A stretch of 56,310 nt of DNA from a virus. Lineage: Duplodnaviria; Caudoviricetes. Under the pieces are notes generated by a model. The model had not been told where the DNA came from. It made no database searches and saw only the letters and a program-made list of their open reading frames with translations. Shown in pieces: positions 7,345 through 33,535 of this stretch. The stretch is taken from positions 1 through 56,310 of IMG/VR virus record IMGVR_UViG_3300044617_001003; one strand, given 5' to 3'. The position numbers were made by a program, and so were the translations under genes. The number at the start of each line of letters is the position of its first letter. Within the stretch, counting starts at the first letter, position 1.

Positions 7345-8197
7345 GCGGTATGACGGCTGCATATCGGCAGCCGGGATTGAGGTACATTTGATATCCGGCC
7401 TGCCGCATGGTTTTGTGCAGGGCAACGTGTTCGCAGTCGCCGCCGACGTATTCGACCCCGTCCGCGAAAAAAGCCTGAGACCGGTAGACCGCCAGACCGC
7501 CGAATGCGGAGTTCATCGGGATCGGCTCGCTGCCGACCGGCGGCAGGAGTTCGTGAAACCAGCCGTGTTGCCGGCGGTCCTCCCACCAGTTCAGACGCGC
7601 GGCCCAGGCGTCGTACTGCATGACCCTAATCGCGCCCTCTTGCTCGGCGTGCGTGGAGGCCCAGAGCGAAACACTCGCCATGCCGCCCGGCCGAAGCGAT
7701 CGGCACTGCTCGGTGCCGTAGGCGTCAAGCCAGCCGATGCTGTTCAGGACGCCTTCCGGCGAGAACCCGCCCGTGGGATCCATGTCGATCACGACCACGA
7801 AGTCGCAGTCAGGGGCGTTTTGAACAGCCCAGCGGCGGCACCGGTTTCGGTACTCCGCCAGGGCGATCGTTCTGTCCTCCTCGAACCCCCGATAATCCGG
7901 CCTGTGCAGCGTGGCGTGTTCGTGGGTAGCCCACGGCCGGGACTCGGCGAACGAGGTGAGCATCTGGGTGGTGCCGTCGGTCGAGTCGTTTTCGTAGACG
8001 TAGAGCGACGCACTCTTGAAGAACCCGGCCGTCTCTTCGAGGAGAACCAGCGTGTTTTCGAGAAACGGCATGGCGTCCCTGGCGATGGCCAGGAAGCACA
8101 CCGACGACCTCGCGGCTGACTCTCGCCCAATGGCGACGTATTTGTCGTAATGCTCTTGATACGGCGGCTCGATTCGCCAGAAATCTTCAGGCTTCAT
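7322..8197 (-). CDS. GT-A fold glycosyltransferase (CAP59/Anp1-like)
   Basis: YENDSTDGT, LAEYRN, DMD (DxD), SAFGGLAVY, DCEHV. Confidence 0.8.
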   Translation of the reverse strand: MKPEDFWRIEPPYQEHYDKYVAIGRESAARSSVCFLAIARDAMPFLENTLVLLEETAGFFKSASLYVYENDSTDGTTQMLTSFAESRPWATHEHATLHRPDYRGFEEDRTIALAEYRNRCRRWAVQNAPDCDFVVVIDMDPTGGFSPEGVLNSIGWLDAYGTEQCRSLRPGGMASVSLWASTHAEQEGAIRVMQYDAWAARLNWWEDRRQHGWFHELLPPVGSEPIPMNSAFGGLAVYRSQAFFADGVEYVGGDCEHVALHKTMRQAGYQMYLNPGCRYAAVIPHGVAAQD

Positions 8198-8798
8198 TGA
8201 GGAATATCCAGAAGTGGTTCGGGTGGGCGCCTGGGTACGGGTGCGGAATGGCCATAAACTTCTCGTGGCCGAGCCGTTGAATCGCGTGGCTGACATCTCG
8301 CCTGTTGTCATGCACCTCGATCAGCCACCGCGTCCCCCTGAACTTCTCCGGCGTCGCGCCGTTCAGAACCAGATGCTCTGCGCCCTCAACGTCGATTTTC
8401 ACAAAATCGACGACACCGCCAGCGCAGGCGTCAAGGACGTAGTCCAGGGTTACTGCGGGGACACTCTCGACATCTATGACAGATGTTTTTTCTTGTCCAC
8501 CGCCGCCAATAGGGTGTGTCGGCAGGATCGACGATTGGTCAGGCTTGTCTCGGAGGTAAAAGTCCCTCTGACCGAAGGCGTCGGCGCACGCAAACTCGTG
8601 GAGCGTGGCGTTCCTGGGGATATGACGCCGGATTCGCTCTGCAGCCCGGCGGTCGGGCTCGACGGCAACGACGCTGTCGAAATACTGCGACAGCCAGTGC
8701 GTCCATTCGCCCTTGTTGGCCCCGATATCCAGGGCTACACGACGATGGCCTCGAAGAAAAAACTCGGCGTAATCCTGCAGCAAAAAGACTTCTTCCAT
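8187..8798 (-). CDS. FkbM family methyltransferase
   Basis: LDIGANKG, VEPD, FVKIDVEGAE..VL.G. Confidence 0.9.
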   Translation of the reverse strand: MEEVFLLQDYAEFFLRGHRRVALDIGANKGEWTHWLSQYFDSVVAVEPDRRAAERIRRHIPRNATLHEFACADAFGQRDFYLRDKPDQSSILPTHPIGGGGQEKTSVIDVESVPAVTLDYVLDACAGGVVDFVKIDVEGAEHLVLNGATPEKFRGTRWLIEVHDNRRDVSHAIQRLGHEKFMAIPHPYPGAHPNHFWIFLNEA

Positions 8799-10290: not shown

Positions 10291-10365
10291 CTGTCTCTTT
10301 TCCTTGATTTATGCGACACGTTGAACCGTCGTGTCGCCGCTTGCGACAGGTTTATATGCAGCACT

Positions 10366-10425
10366 CGGTAACGCCGTGCCTCGCGTCTCGCGGCCGTGCG
10401 GTGAAGATGCGGCGGGGTGTTATGC
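10366..10425 (+). mobile_element. degenerate attC-like site
   Basis: TAAC...CGCGTCT...AGATGCG...GTTATGC imperfect fold-back. Confidence 0.35.
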
Positions 10426-10470
10426 GGCACGGGGGGCGGCTATCGAGAACCGCATACTCACTGGTTCTGC

Positions 10471-10809
10471 CTACCCGTTCTCTGCCCGTGAAACAATCTC
10501 GCGAGCCACTTCGATCAGTTTCCACACCGCATCGTCGTAACCCTCGTCAGTCGCTCGGATTATCCGCTTGAGCATCGACAGCAAATCCGGTGAGGCGGCG
10601 AGTAGTCTGGCGTTGGCAAGATTCTCTGCGTTCTGGCAGCCAGGAAGCACAGCGAGGCACAAATACTTGCCAACGCCGTCGGGGGCAGTGGCGACGGCAA
10701 ACGACTCGCTTATCGTTGCGATCATCCACGGTGCTGGCGTGTGCGATGCAGAACCAGCGGATGCAGGAGGCATCGCTGCCGAGTCCTGCTGTGTAGTCGA
10801 ATCACTCAT
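10471..10809 (-). CDS. cassette A gene: phage protein with HTPAPW / NARLLAASPDLL motifs
   Basis: Common phage accessory motif; start codon and RBS lie inside attC1. Confidence 0.8.
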   Translation of the reverse strand: MSDSTTQQDSAAMPPASAGSASHTPAPWMIATISESFAVATAPDGVGKYLCLAVLPGCQNAENLANARLLAASPDLLSMLKRIIRATDEGYDDAVWKLIEVAREIVSRAENG

Positions 10810-10837
10810 GCGATGCTCCTGATCCTGCGTGTTATGC
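10748..10837 (+). mobile_element. attC site 1 (integron cassette recombination site)
   Basis: GCAGAAC-N5-GAT(G)CAGGAG(G)CATCGC...GCGATG-CTCCTG-ATC-N6-GTTATGC: R''/L''/L'/R' architecture with two extrahelical bases. Confidence 0.85.
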
Positions 10838-10996
10838 CTTCAAGTCAGCGCGAGTCATTCCGTCGTAGAAGTTCCACATCGCGTAAGGAAACAGTGCAAA
10901 CGGAATCCACCATTTTTCCGTGAGAACGAGGAGCGTGAATGTAAACGCAAATGTCACCGCAATGTCGATCAGCCGCCTTTTTGTTCTCTCGCTCAC
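10832..10996 (-). CDS. cassette B gene: 54-aa membrane protein (not in ORF track)
   Basis: GTG start with GGAGG RBS; MSERTKRRLIDIAVTFAFTFTLLVLTEKWWIPFALFPYAMWNFYDGMTRADLKA; TAA stop lies in the attC1 R' box. Confidence 0.7.
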   Translation of the reverse strand: MSERTKRRLIDIAVTFAFTFTLLVLTEKWWIPFALFPYAMWNFYDGMTRADLKA

Positions 10997-11024
10997 GGCA
11001 AATCCTCCGTTTCAATGATGCTTG

Positions 11025-11081
11025 GCATAACCAGCGGATGAAAGCGGACGGCAGAGCCGCCGCTTATCCTGCGTGTTCTCA
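11025..11081 (+). mobile_element. attC site 2
   Basis: GCATAAC-CAGCG-GAT(GA)AAGCGG(A)CGGC-AGA-GCCG-CCGCTT-ATC-CTGCGT-GTTCTCA; outer arms identical to attC1. Confidence 0.85.
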
Positions 11082-11234
11082 ATCAAAACAATGCAGGCGA
11101 ACGAACGCCTCCGCAAGAGCCAATGCGGCCCATTTCCTGAACTGCACAATCACTCGCCCGTCAATAACGACAGTCCACCCGGAACGCCGGTCGCATCCGT
11201 AGTCCCTGTCGTAGTGGAGGGCGAATGATTTCAT
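11079..11234 (-). CDS. cassette C gene: 51-aa hypothetical protein (not in ORF track)
   Basis: MKSFALHYDRDYGCDRRSGWTVVIDGRVIVQFRKWAALALAEAFVRLHCFD; TGA stop lies in the attC2 R' box. Confidence 0.65.
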   Translation of the reverse strand: MKSFALHYDRDYGCDRRSGWTVVIDGRVIVQFRKWAALALAEAFVRLHCFD

Positions 11235-11245
11235 ATCTGATTCGT

Positions 11246-11293
11246 TGAGAACCACGCGATGCTGCGGACGAGCCGCAGATCGCAGCGTTCTCA
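11246..11293 (+). mobile_element. attC site 3 (short)
   Basis: TGAGAAC-CACGC-GAT(G)CTGCGG-ACGAG-CCGCAG-ATC-GCAGC-GTTCTCA. Confidence 0.75.
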
Positions 11294-11710
11294 GCCTAAC
11301 CGCTCAATCACGCCGCGAAGCGTAGCCGCGACCCTCGCACAGTCCTCGTCATCGTCGTTGTCCGCATACGACTCCGCAGCACACGCAATCGCCTCCCGCT
11401 CCTCGTCGGTGAGCGTGGGCGAGCGGTAGAGCGGGACGACATCGGCCATGCCGACCACAGCACCTTCGGCGTCTTGTTGGCTGTACGACAGCCACATCGG
11501 CTGGCCGTTCTTGCCAACCGCTGCCCACGCCACCGGCTCCCGTGCATTGCCAGTGACCTCACCGTGTGCCGCCTCAAGCCGCAGCCTTGCGATCTCGGCA
11601 TCCCCTCGCAGGCGAGTGATCTCGTCTGCCGCCTCGTCAAACAACTCGCCGAGCCTCGCAAGGTGCAGGCCGCGCCAGCCGCGAAGTCGCGCCACAATGT
11701 CGTCACTCAT
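11291..11710 (-). CDS. phage hypothetical protein (DIVARLR / EAADEI.RLR / EPVAW / LTDEEREAI modules)
   Basis: Typical mosaic phage accessory motifs; stop lies in the attC3 R' box. Confidence 0.8.
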   Translation of the reverse strand: MSDDIVARLRGWRGLHLARLGELFDEAADEITRLRGDAEIARLRLEAAHGEVTGNAREPVAWAAVGKNGQPMWLSYSQQDAEGAVVGMADVVPLYRSPTLTDEEREAIACAAESYADNDDDEDCARVAATLRGVIERLG

Positions 11711-11960
11711 GCGAGCAGCATCCGTCGCAGCCGTGGATATTCTTGTGCCCCATGCCAACGCGATCCAAGTACGCCGCATCGTCTGGGTCTGGATGCCCTA
11801 CGCCGTGCTGGCAGATTCTCTCCATTTTCCCGGCGTCGTCTCGCCAGCGCATCGGCCACGACCTCATATGATGCTCCGAAGGGTTATGAATGCAGCAGAA
11901 CTCGCCAGCGCATTTCGCAGCGTCGTGAGTGACGAGGCTTTTCACTCTATTCCCCCGCAT
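11703..11960 (-). CDS. Cys/His-rich conserved phage protein
   Basis: C....CCIHNPS.HHM, ERIC.HGVGHPDPD, HGCDGCC. Confidence 0.75.
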   Translation of the reverse strand: MRGNRVKSLVTHDAAKCAGEFCCIHNPSEHHMRSWPMRWRDDAGKMERICQHGVGHPDPDDAAYLDRVGMGHKNIHGCDGCCSHE

Positions 11961-14736: not shown

Positions 14737-15200
14737 GGCTCACTCCTGTGTGTCGCGGGGTAGCCTATCGACGAAATCCATTTCTGGCAAGCCTCGCGGA
14801 CGGCGTCGCTCTTGTGCTTGGAGGCACACCAGCGAATATACGCCTCTCCGTTCTCTGTTCTGGATGCCTGTGCAAGTGTCATGCCGGAGCAGATGCCCTC
14901 GAAAAAAACGAAGTCGTCGCTTGGCGCAAGAACTCCCTCGACCGCAGGAACGTGCTGCTGCCAGCCGCAAAACGCGCAGGCGATCAGCCACTGGCTCCGG
15001 TAGTCGTCGAGAATGTCAAAATAGGTAGCCTGACACTTTGGATTGTGGCAGGTGAAGTGCCCGTCTGACTGCCCGAGAATCGTCTCTGGCTCGTAGGAAA
15101 CAGACTGCGCCGGCGCCGGTGGTGGCTCCTGCTTTTTTGCGCGACGGGGCTTCTTGGACTTCTCTGGCTCCTCCGGCGAGATGTCGAACAGCAGGCTCAT
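14724..15200 (-). CDS. zinc-ribbon hypothetical protein
   Basis: CHNPKC...CAFC. Confidence 0.7.
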   Translation of the reverse strand: MSLLFDISPEEPEKSKKPRRAKKQEPPPAPAQSVSYEPETILGQSDGHFTCHNPKCQATYFDILDDYRSQWLIACAFCGWQQHVPAVEGVLAPSDDFVFFEGICSGMTLAQASRTENGEAYIRWCASKHKSDAVREACQKWISSIGYPATHRSEPCSS

Positions 15201-17737
15201 ATCCGCACCCCCATCCGGAAGTCGACCGGGTCGTCGGAGATAATCAGTTCTCGCCTCGCCCTCGTCACGCCGACATACTCGACGCGACGCTCCTCGTCGT
15301 GCTGTGCCCTGTCGGACGACCGAGCCTCGTGGATCTTGCGGGTCAGGGTCGTCGACAGGACGACAACGTCGGCCTCCATGCCTTTCGCCGAGTGGACGCT
15401 CCCGAGGCGAATCTGTGGCCGTGCGGCCAAATCGGCGCCCCACTTCAGGGCCGCCGCCCGAAACTTCTCGCCGCCGTCGACCAGATCGGCCCAGGTTCCA
15501 CCAAGCACCCTGTCCACCATGGCCTGCGTCATGCCGGTGTCGCCGAGCGCCGACGGAAAGACAGCGTCCCAGCGGCGCTGCGTCTCCTCGCGGCGCCAGT
15601 TGGTCTTGGTGCCCCGCTCCAGCAGCGGGCCGTCCTTTCCTCGCGACGGAATCTCCTCGATGGCGCAGGCGAAGTCTTCGCCAGAAACAGCCTCGCCGTG
15701 TTCGAGATCCCAGAGCGCCCGGATCCCACGAAGGACCGCCGTGTCACTCTTTGCCTTGAGTTTCGCGAACGGCAGCCGCTTCTTGCGAAGCACTGCGGCC
15801 CACTCGTCCAGCATGAAGTTGCATCGGGCGAGGATCAGCGTGGGCTTCGTCGGATCGAGGCCGGGCACCACGCTGTCGGCACCCTGGCCGCGAGAAATCC
15901 TGCCGTCGTGGTCGGCCGGGGACACCTCCCTGTCGAAGTACCCCTCGTGCATTTGCCGCAGGCACTTCTCGCCGAGCGACAAGATCGGCGCGGGGCACCG
16001 GTATGACTTCGGCATGATCCGCTTCTTGTCGGCAGGCCACGACATGAAGTGCTTGGAGTCAGAGCCGCAGAATCCGTAGATCGAGTTCCCGGTGACATAG
16101 CCGTTTTCGACGACGTAGGTGTGGTATTTCTCGACTTCGAGGCTGTAGACCCTCGCCGTACTTCCAGGGGCGAGCCTGCGAATCGACTTGACGGCGACCC
16201 ACTCGCAGTGCGACCCGACCGTCCTGCTGCCTCGCGGCCCAGTTCCTCGCTTCTTCCTCTCCAGAACGCCGTCGATGAGCCGTGGCGCCAAGTGAATACC
16301 GGGCAACACATTGACAGCCTGAAGAAACCGGCCGGCGCGGCAGCCGTTCTTGCTCCTGTCTGCTTTTTGACAGAACGGAAACAGGATGTCTCGGTCGTGG
16401 TCGTCGAGGCATCGGCGACCGGAATCAGTCATGTCGCCCATTGCGGAGAACACGCCGTCGATGAACTCTCGGCTCAGGTTCGTCTTCCCGTGCGGCGGCC
16501 GAAACGTCACCTGCGGGATGCCGTACCGGCACGACACGATCTGCTCGTGCATTCTGGCATCGCGGTCGGTGTCGAACACTTTGAGAACCCAGACAGAGTC
16601 AGCGTCTTCTTGATTCATTCGCATCTTGAGCCTGAACTCGCCGTTCTTCTCGGATCGCTTTTTCGAGAACATCTGCACCGTACCTACCCGCCACCGGTTG
16701 CCTTTTCGCATCAGGTAGGTCGCGTATGCCTCGCGCTTTTTCGTTCGGACGTACCACTTGTGGTTCGTCGTACAGACTGACTTGGTGCCGTCCTCGAACG
16801 TGACCTCGATCAAGTCTCGCGAATCAACATCTCGCCACGCCTTTCTGAACGGGATCTGCTTGCTCGTTCCGTAGAACCTACCCTCGTTCTTCGAGAACGC
16901 GATCAGTTTGTCGGTCCTGGGGTCGAGATCCTCGATCGGCTTGTAGCCAGACGCGGTCAGGACGGGTGTCCCTTCAAGGGAGCATTGAAAGGGGTCTCCC
17001 GCGACGTAAACCCACGCCACCTCCGGCCCGCTGGCGAGCCGGCGGCAGACCTTGTCCACCAAGGCCGAGGCATCCTGTGCCTCGTCGAAGATCCACGCCC
17101 TCACGCCGGCCGGCAGTTCGCCTTCCGGGTCAGTGAAGTAGAAGCCGTCGGCCTCGAAGTGGATGCCGGCGTACCGGGCAAGCAGGTCCGTAAAGTCAGA
17201 CCTGTTCTCCAGACGCTTGGCCTGCTCGTACCGGTCAACCAACTGCTTGCAGCGGGCGAACGGCGGCACCTCTCGGCCGGCGCGCACCATCCTCTCAACC
17301 GTTTTCTTGAGCGGCTCAATACGCGCCCGGCTGACATCCCAGCATTCCAGTGCTGCGGCCGCCGTCTTGTCTCCAGCATACCTGACCCGGCCGTCGTCCT
17401 CGTCCAGTAGCGTCCGGATGTCGACCTTCAGGGCTCCGGCAAGCCAAATCTGGCTCTCCTTCTTGTCGTCGATCATCTGGCCCTTCACGATCCCCAACTG
17501 CTTGTGGCAGATGCCGTGGGCCGTCTTGAACCAGCCGTCTCGGGACAGAACCTCCACCGGAACGCCCCAGGCGAGGCTCGCCCGCTCGACGGCCTCCTGC
17601 CGGGCGGCCTTCGTCATGCTTGCGAAACCGACAGCAAACGGGCTGCCGCCGAGGGCCGACTTGGCCCCCTCCATGACCCGGAGAAGTTCCGTAGTCTTCC
17701 CAGACCCCGCAGATCCAATGAGCATTGCTGTTTTCAT
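15197..17737 (-). CDS. UvrD/REP-like SF1 helicase containing an intein
   Basis: GSAGSGKT, DEAQD, GDPFQ|SIYGF, SYRCP, SVHSAKGMEAD, EERRVEYVGVTRAR. Confidence 0.92.
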   Translation of the reverse strand: MKTAMLIGSAGSGKTTELLRVMEGAKSALGGSPFAVGFASMTKAARQEAVERASLAWGVPVEVLSRDGWFKTAHGICHKQLGIVKGQMIDDKKESQIWLAGALKVDIRTLLDEDDGRVRYAGDKTAAAALECWDVSRARIEPLKKTVERMVRAGREVPPFARCKQLVDRYEQAKRLENRSDFTDLLARYAGIHFEADGFYFTDPEGELPAGVRAWIFDEAQDASALVDKVCRRLASGPEVAWVYVAGDPFQCSLEGTPVLTASGYKPIEDLDPRTDKLIAFSKNEGRFYGTSKQIPFRKAWRDVDSRDLIEVTFEDGTKSVCTTNHKWYVRTKKREAYATYLMRKGNRWRVGTVQMFSKKRSEKNGEFRLKMRMNQEDADSVWVLKVFDTDRDARMHEQIVSCRYGIPQVTFRPPHGKTNLSREFIDGVFSAMGDMTDSGRRCLDDHDRDILFPFCQKADRSKNGCRAGRFLQAVNVLPGIHLAPRLIDGVLERKKRGTGPRGSRTVGSHCEWVAVKSIRRLAPGSTARVYSLEVEKYHTYVVENGYVTGNSIYGFCGSDSKHFMSWPADKKRIMPKSYRCPAPILSLGEKCLRQMHEGYFDREVSPADHDGRISRGQGADSVVPGLDPTKPTLILARCNFMLDEWAAVLRKKRLPFAKLKAKSDTAVLRGIRALWDLEHGEAVSGEDFACAIEEIPSRGKDGPLLERGTKTNWRREETQRRWDAVFPSALGDTGMTQAMVDRVLGGTWADLVDGGEKFRAAALKWGADLAARPQIRLGSVHSAKGMEADVVVLSTTLTRKIHEARSSDRAQHDEERRVEYVGVTRARRELIISDDPVDFRMGVRI
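16085..16984 (-). mobile_element. 300-aa intein in helicase motif III
   Basis: Begins CSLEGTPVLT, block B CTTNHKW, ends VYSLEVEKYHTYVVENGYVTGN before Ser; excision restores GDPFQSIYGF. Confidence 0.92.
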
Positions 17738-17874
17738 GACCACAAAACCAAAAACCGTTTTATTCCCAGGATTTGTGGTACGTCGTAAACCCTTGCAAAC
17801 AGGGCACTTACGACTCGAAAACCACAAAACCAGAAAACCAACGCAAAATGAGGATGCGAAACGTCGTTTTTTTT
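17738..17874. other. putative replication origin
   Basis: AT-rich gap after Prim-Pol; ACCACAAAACCA x2, an inverted TTTGTGGT, and a GTCGTAA...TTACGAC hairpin. Confidence 0.6.
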
Positions 17875-23261: not shown

Positions 23262-24128
23262 ATGTTGCTGGAAGACTTCTTGAGGGACATCTACGTCCCT
23301 CTCAAGGGCATCTGTGCCCAGACCGAGTTGCTCTACAAGATGACGATTGCGGAGTTCGGCAAATCGTTGGGCAAAGACCCGGAACTTGCCGACCTCGAAG
23401 AACTCAAAGTCGCCAAGTTTCTGGCCAAGCGAGTCCGCGAGCGCAAGCCGGCCACGGCGGCCAAGGACCGCAGCCAAATCCGCGCTTTGTGGGAGTTGGC
23501 GGCCCGCAGGCGCATGGTCAACGAGTGGCCGACGATTTCTAGGATCCGGGTGCCAGAGCGCGTCCCGGAGGCGTGGCTGACGGGCGAGATGGAGTCGCTG
23601 CTCGTCTCGGCGTCCCTGGAGACTTCTAGGTACGTCGGCATTCCGGCGGCGCTCTGGTGGCGAGCCATCCTGCTGGTCTGCTACGACACCGGGGAGCGCA
23701 TCGGCTCTGTGGTGTCGGCTCGGTGGCGAGACGTTCGCGGCGGCAGCATTTTGTTCGTCGCCGAAAACAGGAAGGGGAAGCGTCGGGACATTCTTCGTGC
23801 CCTCAAGCCGGAGACGCTCGCCGCCCTGCAGGTGATCCGCTTTGACCGCGAACCCGGCGACCTCGTGTTCCCATGGCCCAGGTCTCGCGGCTACCTGTGG
23901 AGGCGGCTTGAAATCATTCTGAAGCGGGCCGGGCTGCCGCACGACCGGTCGTGCAAGTTCCACAAGATCAGGCGCACGACGGCCAGTTATTCGGCCGCTG
24001 CCGGCCTGTCGGCCCAGGAGATCCTCGATCACTCAGACCCGAAGGTCACTCGCCGCTACATCGACCCGAGGATCGTCACTCAGCCGACGGCGGCCGATGT
24101 CATTCCGCCGCTTCGGGAGCCGGCGTGA
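23262..24128 (+). CDS. tyrosine recombinase/integrase
   Basis: TGERIG (R), RKGK (K), FHKIRR (HxxR), LDHS (H), TRRY (Y). Confidence 0.9.
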   Translation: MLLEDFLRDIYVPLKGICAQTELLYKMTIAEFGKSLGKDPELADLEELKVAKFLAKRVRERKPATAAKDRSQIRALWELAARRRMVNEWPTISRIRVPERVPEAWLTGEMESLLVSASLETSRYVGIPAALWWRAILLVCYDTGERIGSVVSARWRDVRGGSILFVAENRKGKRRDILRALKPETLAALQVIRFDREPGDLVFPWPRSRGYLWRRLEIILKRAGLPHDRSCKFHKIRRTTASYSAAAGLSAQEILDHSDPKVTRRYIDPRIVTQPTAADVIPPLREPA

Positions 24129-30611: not shown

Positions 30612-30640
30612 AGTGTCGCTGCGTAGCGTCTGTGGGTCAA
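30612..30640 (-). promoter_or_regulatory. putative sigma70 promoter
   Basis: TTGACC-N17-GACACT in the intergenic gap. Confidence 0.55.
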
Positions 30641-31875
30641 GGCAGTTTGCGCGTCCACCAAGTTTGATCTACGCCAAGTTCGACGCGGCCTCCGAACGCC
30701 TCATCGACAGCCCGCTTGACCCCCCACTTGCCGCGCCGCTCCATCGGGTGATCGTAGTCGTGGCCCCCGATCCAGCCCCCCGGCCGAACCTTCGGCAGCC
30801 ACGCCGCGATGTCTGCGGCAACGGCCTCGTAGGTGTGTTCGGCGTCGATGTAGCAGAGGTCAAGGGAGCCATCTTGGACAGCGCTGGCGCCAGCAATGCT
30901 GTCACAGTCCAAGATTCTGGGAGAGTACGGCGCCGTGAGCCCAGCCGCCCTGCCCTTGACGACCGCCCACTGGGCCTCCGTCAGCGAGGCGGCCAAGTCG
31001 CCGCTGTCCCGGTATCGGTCGCCCGCGACAGACCACTGATCGACGAGCGTGGCCTTCGACTGCGGGCGGCGTGACAGCACGCCGAGGGCGTTGTACCCGT
31101 CAGCGACGCCGACCTCGGCCCACGATGACCCGTCTGCGAGCCGCTGCGCGATTTCGTCGCACGGCGACTTCTGCCACCGCGTTCGCTGAATCCGCGCCCG
31201 GCGCCTGGTCGGCCCGGTGAAGTGGTAGATGAAACCGTTCATCACTCCCGTGTTGTGTTCCGGCCGGTGGGCCTGTGCGGCTGCGACCACGTTCCATTCG
31301 TGGGGGAGCCAAGTCACTTTTGCGTCGGTGTTGTCGATGAGGACAGATAGGGACGCCTGCTCCGGCAGTCTCCATTTCGTCCACCCCGCAGACTCGCCGA
31401 CTCCCCGGAGGTGCCGAAACAGTTGCTCGTGATGCCGGGGCGAGTAGAGAAACAGCCCGCCGTTGAGATGCTTGCTGTCGTGGCAGGGCTCCATTCCCAT
31501 CCGCGCCGCCCAGACGCGGACGCACTTGTCTCGGTGCCTGCTGATGATCGACGCGGCGCTCTCTGCGCGGTCAAACTCCGGTGGGTCGAACTGCCGTGCG
31601 GAAACGACGCCGATGTGGTCTTCTGGCACGAGGTCAAACGGGCTGGGCGCATCCCACCGGATCAGCATATCGGCGTCCAGTTGGATCACGCGGTCGTAGT
31701 CGGCCAGCCTGAGAGGCGCGAACGCCTTCTGCCAGAAGTGATGGATGTCGCGGAGCGGCTCGGTGAACTCGACGAAGTCGCACCCCCACCTGTCGCACGC
31801 CGCCAGAAACGACTCGCGGCTTTTCTGGTGGATGCAGCCGCCTCCGACATTCAAGACAGCCAAGGCCAGTTTCAT
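30637..31875 (-). CDS. GT8-like glycosyltransferase fused to class I SAM methyltransferase
   Basis: QLDADM, NGG, EQ..L, WN, HFTG; C-terminal AEVGV..G, YIDAEHTYE, KVRPGGWIGGHDY. Confidence 0.85.
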   Translation of the reverse strand: MKLALAVLNVGGGCIHQKSRESFLAACDRWGCDFVEFTEPLRDIHHFWQKAFAPLRLADYDRVIQLDADMLIRWDAPSPFDLVPEDHIGVVSARQFDPPEFDRAESAASIISRHRDKCVRVWAARMGMEPCHDSKHLNGGLFLYSPRHHEQLFRHLRGVGESAGWTKWRLPEQASLSVLIDNTDAKVTWLPHEWNVVAAAQAHRPEHNTGVMNGFIYHFTGPTRRRARIQRTRWQKSPCDEIAQRLADGSSWAEVGVADGYNALGVLSRRPQSKATLVDQWSVAGDRYRDSGDLAASLTEAQWAVVKGRAAGLTAPYSPRILDCDSIAGASAVQDGSLDLCYIDAEHTYEAVAADIAAWLPKVRPGGWIGGHDYDHPMERRGKWGVKRAVDEAFGGRVELGVDQTWWTRKLP

Positions 31876-33146
31876 GCCCCACCTCTGACAACGTGAGAAA
31901 TCGCCGCAGCCTTCTGATCGTCGCTGGGCGATATGCCGAGGAAGTCGACCATGCTCTCGACCGCCTGCGCCGGGTCGGCCAGAAGTGCGTCGTGGCGAAC
32001 GTCAAGAACCGCTTCGGCCGGGAGCGACGCAAGGAACTTCTCCTTCTCCTCCCAGAGCCACCGCTGGACGGCCTCGCACTGCTCGTCCGTCGCGGCCAGC
32101 CACCCGCGAGACTTGGCGCTGCGTCGCTTCAGCGAATCAATGGAATCTGCCAGCGGCCTGTCGCAGTGAATCACCTTCAGGCCGTCGCCGCAGATCGAAA
32201 CCAAGTGGTCGCCCGCCGCGCACAGGTGCGGATACTTTCCGCCCACCAGCCCGCTGCCTCCTCGGCTGGCGATCCACCGAGAGAGCCGCTGGCCGAACTC
32301 GCCCTGGTCTGCGACGCCCACGGTCGGGAACCTCGCCGCTCGCTCGCATAGCCGCGCCAGACCGACGGCCTCGCCGCCGCCGCCGTTGCGGGCCTCGTAT
32401 CCGCCTAGTTTGTCGCCCATGTTGACGCCGAGTTTGTGCAGCATCATTGCAATGCAACTCGACCCGCTTCGGTGCAGCCCAACGACCGCCACGAACGGCC
32501 GCGAACTGGACTTTCGGTGCCACCACCGCTCAGGCACCTCCTTCCACGAAACGTCGCTCTTGCCGTCAGCGGCCTGACCGCAGAGCCACTCCTCCGGTGC
32601 GTAGCACGGGATGAGTTTCGCCTTGTGCATTCGGCCGTAGTGATGGTCGATATGGTTTCGGTCTACCCAGTGATCGCAGGCGTTGAGCCACTGGTAGGCC
32701 TCTCGCATCGCTGCGGCCCCACGCAACGCATAGGCGTGCGTGCGGTTGATGTTCTTTGCCTGCACCACGCCCGCCGCGATCCGCTCTGCTCGCTTCAGAT
32801 GCTGGCCGCCGAGATACGCCTGCCCCCAATCCTGCGGAACCGCGCGGAAGAATCCGTCGGCCTTGTCCGAGAAGCCATCGCAGAAAGTGGCGTCGTCCTC
32901 GAAGATCAAGACGGACTCGACGCCGTCGTTGAGGCACTGCTCGATGATGCTCAGGTGGCTTCTGTAGCACCCCCAGGCGCCGCCGCCCTGCTTCCACCAC
33001 GCCGGGTGCGGGGCGAGTTTTCCGTCCACGGCCGGGAAGACCTCGATCTCGCCCAGGCGGAAGTCGACAGGGACTCGCGACAAGAATGCTTCGAGCCTTT
33101 CGGGCCGCCGCTTGAGCGACACGACGCAGACGCGGCCGAACTTCAT
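31872..33146 (-). CDS. GT25-like glycosyltransferase fused to sulfotransferase domain
   Basis: VSLKRRPER, AVDG, GC..SH, IFEDDA, THAY; C-terminal VVGLHRSGSS PAPS-binding loop and LLADP......DFLG. Confidence 0.85.
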   Translation of the reverse strand: MKFGRVCVVSLKRRPERLEAFLSRVPVDFRLGEIEVFPAVDGKLAPHPAWWKQGGGAWGCYRSHLSIIEQCLNDGVESVLIFEDDATFCDGFSDKADGFFRAVPQDWGQAYLGGQHLKRAERIAAGVVQAKNINRTHAYALRGAAAMREAYQWLNACDHWVDRNHIDHHYGRMHKAKLIPCYAPEEWLCGQAADGKSDVSWKEVPERWWHRKSSSRPFVAVVGLHRSGSSCIAMMLHKLGVNMGDKLGGYEARNGGGGEAVGLARLCERAARFPTVGVADQGEFGQRLSRWIASRGGSGLVGGKYPHLCAAGDHLVSICGDGLKVIHCDRPLADSIDSLKRRSAKSRGWLAATDEQCEAVQRWLWEEKEKFLASLPAEAVLDVRHDALLADPAQAVESMVDFLGISPSDDQKAAAISHVVRGGA

Positions 33147-33535
33147 TGTGCGCCCCACTTTCCGACCGGGCACGACTGATCGGCCCACGACAGTTTGCTC
33201 AGGAACTTCTTCTCTCGGACGATCGGGCAGCCGCACTTCTTGCAGGCACTGCCGTCGAAGAACTCGCACCCTCGGCAGATGGCGTACCGCCGCTCCACCT
33301 CAGACTCGGTCGCCATCGGGGCTCCGGCGGCAACGTGCTTCGAGGCCGCCGAAACGAAGTTGATAGCCTTGCGAAGCAGCGTCGGCCCTGGCTTCGGGCG
33401 CGGGTAGTCCTTGTGCGACTCGTCCACCGTGATTGTGTCGCCGTCCTCGCTGACGATGCACGCGCGCACCTCGTCAAGCGTGTATCCGCGCTCGCTGCAT
33501 CGCTTCTCAAACGATGATCGGCGGCCTGTGATCAC
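33143..33535 (-). CDS. Cys-rich (probable metal-binding) protein
   Basis: R..IC..CE......C..CGC.....K......CP..KW. Confidence 0.75.
   Translation of the reverse strand: MITGRRSSFEKRCSERGYTLDEVRACIVSEDGDTITVDESHKDYPRPKPGPTLLRKAINFVSAASKHVAAGAPMATESEVERRYAICRGCEFFDGSACKKCGCPIVREKKFLSKLSWADQSCPVGKWGAQ

Follow-up and report, generated by a model that had tools for sequence, protein, structure and literature searches.

The 56,310-nucleotide record IMGVR_UViG_3300044617_001003 of the IMG/VR database (the window, by which we mean this whole stretch of phage DNA) very probably contains, at positions 10353–11289, an integron platform that lacks an integrase. An attI-like site stands at its head, and behind it come three gene cassettes that each end in an attC site. 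These sites are of the types found in chromosomal integrons of a freshwater Planctomycetaceae family, and the integron integrase (IntI) of such a host would act on them. We infer that the host IntI is the catalyst and that cassette exchange is still ongoing. The features of the array are listed here, together with the open reading frames (ORFs) of the cassettes. Bit scores and E-values of the attC sites are those of covariance model R2, described below, and z compares the fold of a site with that of shuffled sequences.

10353..10466, + strand: attI-like element, non-coding and conserved, ending in GTT; putative crossover at G/TT, 10464/10465
10465..10831, + strand: cassette A, 367 bp; begins with the TT of the attI junction, ends with the G of the attC1 GTT
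10471..10809, − strand: ORF A, 112 aa; phrog_1273 (E 9.1e-10), no Pfam match; ATG inside the attC1 loop
10752..10833, + strand: attC1, long class, 82 nt; 53.8 bits, E 5.2e-10; z −2.6
10832..11075, + strand: cassette B, 244 bp; body 49.2% G+C
10832..10996, − strand: ORF B, 54 aa, small hydrophobic protein; no family match; stop codon overlaps the G/TT point
11029..11077, + strand: attC2, medium class, 49 nt; 64.1 bits, E 2.2e-12; z −3.4; near-identical core in 55 viral contigs
11076..11287, + strand: cassette C, 212 bp; complementary ends; body 54.1% G+C
11079..11255, − strand: ORF C, 58 aa from a GTG (shorter from an internal ATG); no family match
11250..11289, + strand: attC3, short class, 40 nt; 41.4 bits, E 3.5e-7; z −4.2
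11291..11779, − strand: ORF D; stop codon abuts attC3; no R2 site to its right

Anatomy of the sites and cassettes

A first-pass annotation, made from the sequence alone, had described three attC-like fold-backs in this region, and all the motifs it named are present. Each site is framed by AAC and GTT with spacers of 5 and 6 nt, and in the predicted folds two bulges lie on the 5′ arm of the + strand, which is the 3′ arm of the minus strand, opposite AAC; the architecture with bulges on one arm was thus correctly read. Bulged bases on the arm opposite AAC mark the bottom strand as the one that is recombined (Nivina 2016). Across the site classes, the predicted loop ranges from 3 to about 40 nt. 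As single-stranded DNA, the + strands of all three sites fold better than their shuffles. Two 12-nt boxes that attC1 and attC2 were said to have in common were recovered as repeat families. At the left edge of the array, where another fold-back had been placed at 10445–10470, the sequence is the core of the attI-like element and not an attC; the fold of 10440–10475 is not clearly better than that of shuffles (z −1.7).

Covariance model R1 was built from 20 cores, all of the 48-nt class. With filters off it gave weak, partial matches on host arrays, and for this reason R2 was built, from 150 R1 matches in other loci and with the window left out. Over all 56,310 bases, and with filters off, R2 has three matches and no more, each of them on the + strand; the hit that follows has an E-value of 0.2. 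The R2 limits place the true site ends about 4 nt inside the first-pass coordinates on both sides. In the site alignment (92 distinct rows), 96% of the cells are paired and 12 of the 19 pairs have compensatory changes. None of 500 shuffles reaches this pairing, and slid controls pair at 30–57%. The two A-U pairs of the AAC/GTT columns are present in 92 of 92 rows and the C-G pair in 91. An Rfam search of the window at gathering thresholds gave no match. A rule-based scan for attC architecture gave five places, against 1.4 ± 0.9 in 30 shuffles, and missed attC3; one of its places, 10370–10421, was rejected as an attC since it belongs to the attI-like element. Also discarded was a possible collapsed site, AACCAGCGTGTT at 8045–8056, which has the outer halves with nothing between them and lies inside a 329-aa glycosyltransferase-like ORF, probably by chance. 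By their anatomy, as far as it can be read from the sequence, the three window sites are supported as attC.

When measured from G/TT to G/TT, the cassettes have the sizes first reported, and each contains one small minus-strand ORF. The two ends of a cassette are complementary in all three cases: GTTCTGC (10464) and GCAGAAC (10748) for cassette A, GTTATGCC (10831) and GGCATAAC (11024), matching at 8 of 8 positions, for cassette B, and GTTCTCAA (11075) and TTGAGAAC (11245) for cassette C. The start of cassette B matches its own current R′ at only 4 of 8 positions. The G+C content of the cassette bodies is 58.9% for A, 49.2% for B and 54.1% for C, compared with 63.1% for the window, so that B and C are AT-richer, as had been noted; the body of B falls below the first percentile of 190-nt windows.

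The same site family is present in other viruses. The two boxes, with a gap of 15–45 nt, give 58 matches in 55 other IMG/VR contigs, nearly all of 48 nt and with 17 distinct cores, and they occur in at least 120 metagenome stretches but in only three contigs among 185,579 species genomes. Directly outside AAC and GTT the sequence is variable among the matches. The 55 viral and 120 metagenomic loci, the latter being those among the matches listed, make up the 175 phage-type loci referred to below. The viral loci (479,757 bases) contain 165 R2 sites at E ≤ 1e-5, in length classes of about 40, 48 and 81 nt, with one to seven sites per locus, all on a single strand. The exception is locus L040 (9.7 kb), in which two opposed sites, at 3–49 (−) and 8545–8592 (+), are separated by about 8.5 kb and the first has an attI-like element next to it; this may be two arrays or an inversion. 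Among deposited phages, the DNA of the array has no match.

Variable junctions at a conserved attI-like element

Homology (blastn) between the window and at least 18 other loci stops at 10468–10470, i.e. at the GTT. A profile made from 12 other loci, with the window left out, has one match in the window, at 10353–10466 (E 2.6e-28), which ends exactly at 10466. It matches 68 of the 175 phage-type loci, namely 26 of the 55 viral ones and, among the matches listed, 42 of the 120 metagenomic ones. In these 68 loci the element is followed by 53 distinct 20-nt flanks, which begin like cassette starts. A comparison of related phages had been proposed in the first-pass annotation, to see whether gene content changes at G/TT, and it is at this point that the relatives diverge. 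The 26 viral loci have 75 attC sites in all, and every one is located to the right of the element; in 25 of these loci it has the same orientation as the attC sites, with the first attC 184–606 nt away, L040 being the exception. In the host loci (196 kb), profile matches with E < 0.1 are confined to five loci from four genomes (L107 and L116 belong to one genome). Their E-values are 7.7e-5 to 0.013, all lie about 220–280 nt downstream of intI, and the one in L116 ends at a cassette junction that had been located independently. It is on the conserved element, its variable flanks and these host matches that we base the reading of the window stretch as an attI homologue, and of the locus as an integron without intI. 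Sites of the attI type are recognised only by their cognate integrase (PMC2095811); if this holds here, the resemblance of the phage attI to that of hosts is a pointer to one particular clade of host IntI.

The complementarity of cassette ends is general. When the 6 nt that follow the GTT of a site are set against the 6 nt that precede the AAC of the following site, at least 5 contiguous nucleotides are complementary in 72 of 103 distinct cassettes, and at least 4 in 83. For the 5-nt threshold, the two flanks of the same site give 21 of 167 and random pairs 10.3%. This complementarity of start and end is the trace of circular cassettes opened at one fixed point. It is also present where adjacent sites belong to different size classes and have too little sequence in common for exchange by homology. 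Of the long sites, 30 of 41 hold the start of the ORF to their left, which makes the left-hand cassette the one that a site moves with, and at the attI junctions the conserved part is followed only by GTT and a cassette. Taken together, these observations place the crossover at the right-hand GTT, as in integrons.

Against this can be set a reading in which the hairpins act in the RNA of the early operon, as terminators, as processing sites or in the regulation of translation, and homologous recombination between repeats shuffles them, as has been proposed for the promoter/stem-loop cassettes of T4-type phages. The sites do lie between small genes of one operon, and the long ones hold a Shine-Dalgarno sequence and an ATG and so also matter on the mRNA. 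This reading leaves unexplained the cassette-end signature across classes that have only a few bases in common at the exchange point, and the homology that ends exactly at GTT beside an attI, which is not a hairpin; the same sites flank bacterial intI genes and Rfam knows no such RNA in the window. We regard it as very improbable indeed. A passive relic is another possibility, in which a piece of a host integron, attI and cassettes, was captured once by illegitimate recombination and is now inert. The phage has no intI, and Vibrio phages hold fragments of chromosomal integrons, for which such routes have been proposed (Qi 2023, PMC9892861). A single capture is nevertheless inadequate for the 53 different flanks behind a conserved attI, for the 103 distinct cassettes and for site features (starts in the loop, Shine-Dalgarno sequence plus start, bottom-strand ORFs) that are specific to the phages and missing from the host arrays examined, so that a relic appears quite improbable too. 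Neither of these readings, nor recombination by the phage's own enzyme (see below), explains as simply as the integron platform an attI with 53 neighbours together with sites beside bacterial intI.

Several side observations concern the array in related sequences. Homologues of ORF B (68% identity) follow a medium-class site in L026, L031 and L055, with a weak R1 match (25.4 bits) to their right. Nucleotide clustering reduces 88 cassettes to 80 clusters, sharing being restricted to near-identical contigs. ORF D may be a cassette that has decayed or else the backbone gene that borders the array at its far end; tblastn finds homologues in 47 of the 175 phage-type loci (the metagenomic part among the matches listed). 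Where both attI and ORF D are present (13 loci), 15 of 15 attI/ORF D pairs have ORF D on the bottom strand and at a distance from attI of 5 to 2170 nt. A short version of ORF D is the first cassette in L051 and L054. In X4, a lake water metagenome run, summed contig depth reaches 366–528 at attC1, attC3 and early ORF D, in the stretches 10742–10875 and 11144–11545, against 4–9 in unique flanks; pieces with attC1, attC3 and ORF D are thus common to many genomes of that sample. In runs X1–X4, the assembly graph breaks at attC sites. Two graph joints, 10469>10749 and 11079>11248, were not counted as recombination evidence; their sides are only 21–24 nt and the intervening sequence is unspecified, so they probably come from other genomes.

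Phage-type cassettes and the integrase

In 86 of the 103 cassettes the longer ORF is on the bottom strand, and in 17 on the top strand. The bottom strand has a mean GC3−GC2 contrast (G+C content at third minus second codon positions) of 0.20, the top strand one of 0.03. With the ORFs on the bottom strand, each attC precedes its ORF. An ATG is found in the loop of 61 of 74 long phage sites, as against 6 of the 20 host sites; a start together with a Shine-Dalgarno-like word is found in 34 of the 74 phage sites and in none of the 20 host sites. Medium sites are often followed by a fixed 22-nt leader with a Shine-Dalgarno sequence, behind which at least six unrelated ORFs occur; identical leaders are present in L012 (1133–1156), L053, L014, L013 and L056. 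As a module, attC, leader and ATG seem to be portable, which may be relevant to how new cassettes come about. As to cargo, 13 of the 103 cassette proteins belong to DUF551, others are C5 and Dam DNA methylases, HNH or T5orf172 nucleases and a helix-turn-helix protein, and most have no family match. That cassette A holds a phage-type gene is borne out by the assignment of ORF A to phrog_1273. The phage-specific cassette pool suggested on that ground is likewise supported, by the prevailing ORF strand, the starts in the loop and the phage-typical cargo.

The record is classed as linear and has a CheckV completeness of 99%. Its genes include those for the terminase large subunit (TerL), portal, prohead protease and HK97-type capsid, a Prim-Pol, a UvrD-like helicase, an SNF2 helicase and an N6/N4 DNA methylase, as well as a single tyrosine recombinase; the phage is therefore tailed and probably temperate. 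Nearly all genes, including those around the array, are on the minus strand. The recombinase is the following feature:

23262..24128, + strand: phage tyrosine recombinase, 288 aa, Xer-like; PF00589 (E 1.1e-11) and a SAM-like N-terminal domain

The absence of an IntI, claimed at first pass, holds for the window: there is no match to TIGR02249, a tblastn search with the planctomycete IntI of locus L059 gives a best E-value of 0.41, and for the sole recombinase the best NCBIfam matches are Xer families (about 1e-11), TIGR02249 not being listed at E up to 1. Recombinases were also searched for in related viral records, for 49 of the 55 viral loci (L010, L027, L035, L041, L043 and L052 were left out). 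The L059 IntI has no match in these 49 records, an empty result that carries little weight. PF00589 is found in 26 of the 49, in every case at a place that the window recombinase also matches. In 80 of the at least 120 metagenome loci, the search gave no IntI and five phage-type recombinases.

Integron integrases occur in the putative host group. The TIGR02249 cut-off is passed in 76 of 176 genomes of one Planctomycetaceae family, the GTDB family of the L059 genome. In 7 of 30 loci, R1 sites lie no more than 1.5 kb from intI, co-directional with it in five and divergent in two, and in three of three extended host loci R2 finds four to nine same-strand sites downstream of intI. In these host arrays the ORFs are on the top strand, and the cassette junctions at attI are classical. 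Phage and host meet in L059, a 7.6-kb contig of a metagenome-assembled genome (MAG) titled Planctomycetaceae and one of the three genome matches of the boxes. Its order is EttA, rhodanese, ROK kinase, intI, junction, cassette, medium attC, second cassette and long attC. The IntI scores 443 bits against a TIGR02249 cut-off of 265, and a junction ending in G/TT lies about 230 bp downstream of intI. The reverse ORF of the first cassette resembles proteins of at least 12 phage cassettes (25–44% identity), and the medium-class attC fits the phage consensus (R2, 69.3 bits). Within L059:1–2180, two phage-type reverse-ORF cassettes thus occupy attI-proximal positions beside intI. The newest insertions in an integron are the attI-proximal ones, and the L059 arrangement suggests that a bacterial integron has recently captured phage cassettes.

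The host assignment agrees with the terminase. The window TerL is 56–58% identical to genes in two genomes of this Planctomycetaceae family, and 12 of the 176 family genomes have TerL matches at E ≤ 1e-20; deposited phages, 50,697 in number, give 44% at best. A host in the freshwater Planctomycetaceae family is likely, as judged from these sequence similarities.

The sites might be recombined not by the host IntI but by the phage's own Xer-like enzyme, which would make the array a self-contained cassette system. In favour of this, a full-length homologue (35–59% identity) is present in 22 of the 49 related records, some match in 27, and a match in all eight records that are at least 90% complete; its SAM-like N-terminal domain is common to Xer and IntI enzymes. 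Descent alone would, however, lead to such co-occurrence in a single phage lineage, and the enzyme matches Xer models only, the integron-integrase model remaining unmatched. Furthermore, the sites are near-identical across phages whose recombinases share only that 35–59% identity, and in bacterial genomes bona fide intI genes have attC sites of this type, and a similar attI, beside them. Most simply, the enzyme is the lysogeny integrase of a temperate phage, and a role for it in cassette recombination is unlikely.

If the host IntI is the catalyst, it would bind the folded bottom strand of attC (the minus strand of the window) during infection or lysogeny. It would cut the bottom-strand AAC between A and C, which corresponds to G/TT on the + strand, at 10464/5, 10831/2, 11075/6 and 11287/8. 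Cassettes would be excised as circles, incoming ones would be inserted at the phage attI or at a resident attC, and the phage would in this way gain, lose and reorder small accessory genes of its minus-strand early operon. The suggestion at first pass that the phage borrows the integrase of its host has gained from the host-like attI, the phage-type cassettes at the attI of L059 and the 53 flanks; the catalytic step in it is still an argument from these comparisons. A wider proposal, to which we give about even chances, is that a temperate phage lineage of freshwater Planctomycetaceae keeps an integrase-less platform of its own and parasitises the host IntI. Its "attC-first" cassette pool, with bottom-strand ORFs and start signals in the attC loop or the 22-nt leader, would pass between co-infecting phages and into host integrons.

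A number of points weigh against an integron platform served by the host IntI. The cassette ORFs are on the bottom strand, and the bulged bases of the bottom strand are C and T here, those of classical sites being G and T. The covariation alignment was fitted to the model, which favours structure, and the similarity between phage and host attI is short (about 57 nt) with modest E-values. Phage-type cassettes beside intI were seen once, in L059, among 3 genome, 55 viral and 80 metagenome loci, and L059 may be a chimeric contig. We infer the host only indirectly, from genomes that are MAGs, in which binning errors are possible. No recombination event was seen in the 24 public lake and freshwater runs, which are represented by contigs and are therefore blind to circles and empty junctions.

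Relation to known systems and other features of the record

A CALIN, in which two or more attC sites are clustered without a nearby intI, has been proposed to be mobilised in trans by an IntI encoded elsewhere (Cury 2016). The array, with three attC sites and no intI in the whole 56-kb record, is such a cluster, and its cassettes are, like those of CALINs, largely of unknown function. When compared with CALINs, it differs in being headed by an attI-like site, in being located in a phage genome and in having its ORFs on the bottom strand. Of the components of a complete integron, the attI is present and a gene of the intI clade is missing. Arrays of attC sites beside intI are found in the bacterial genomes, not in the phage itself, and the top-strand cassette ORFs that a Pc promoter would read into are the minority (17 of 103 cassettes), the promoter itself not having been searched for.

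Clusters of attC sites in phages are already known: 17 CALINs were found among 10,705 phage genomes, and IntI1 recombined five of six phage attC sites (Qi 2023, PMC9892861). Those clusters also lack IntI and have DNA methyltransferases among their cargo. They are scattered cases in cultured phages of other hosts, whereas here at least 55 viral contigs have one attC family and a conserved attI with phage-adapted cassettes, and the sites match chromosomal integrons of the host family. The first-pass annotation mentioned neither the attI nor the Xer-like integrase at 23262–24128 nor the published phage clusters.

The array is also close to the chromosomal integrons of Planctomycetaceae, with which it has in common the attC boxes, the long-loop architecture, a similar attI core and G/TT junctions with complementary ends. 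The host arrays have intI, top-strand ORFs and classical R′ flanks, while the phage arrays have bottom-strand ORFs, start codons in the loop and the short 40- and 48-nt classes. Among phage elements, the promoter/stem-loop "mobile regulatory cassettes" of T4-type phages, and morons, are also small accessory genes between repeated structured elements in early regions. The T4-type cassettes are thought to move by homologous or illegitimate recombination; the junctions of the phage array differ in being site-specific (attI, attC, G/TT). A partial literature search, without supplementary tables, found no published report of a phage lineage with a conserved attI, of planctomycete-type attC arrays in phages or of bottom-strand cassettes with start codons in attC.

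Integrons are known as gene-capture devices of bacteria, and attC clusters in phages have so far been rare, scattered reports. Here, the device without its enzyme is a conserved part of a phage lineage, with its own attI and dozens of first cassettes. If the host IntI drives the array, these phages can shuffle accessory genes by means of the recombination system of their host; the shuffled genes probably serve host takeover or counter-defence, DNA methyltransferases and DUF551 proteins being among the cargo. Genes would then also flow from phages into bacterial integrons, and the array would mirror, on the side of the phages, the defence-gene cassettes that have recently been described in bacterial integrons. 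The joining of an attC and translation-start module to unrelated ORFs provides a handle on how cassettes arise.

Some features of the record outside the array are also worth describing. Between the attI-like element and the next minus-strand gene, at 10313–10337, there is a perfect 8-bp hairpin with a 9-nt loop and no T-run after it. The 876-aa UvrD-like helicase (15197–17827, − strand) has a weak match to the intein-splicing family PF14890 (E 9.3e-5, residues 327–578), and probably contains an intein between its N- and C-terminal helicase domains. At 30637–33269 (− strand), between the replication and tail regions, two large genes join a PF13578 methyltransferase with glycosyltransferase-25 and sulfotransferase domains, an unusual cargo for a phage.

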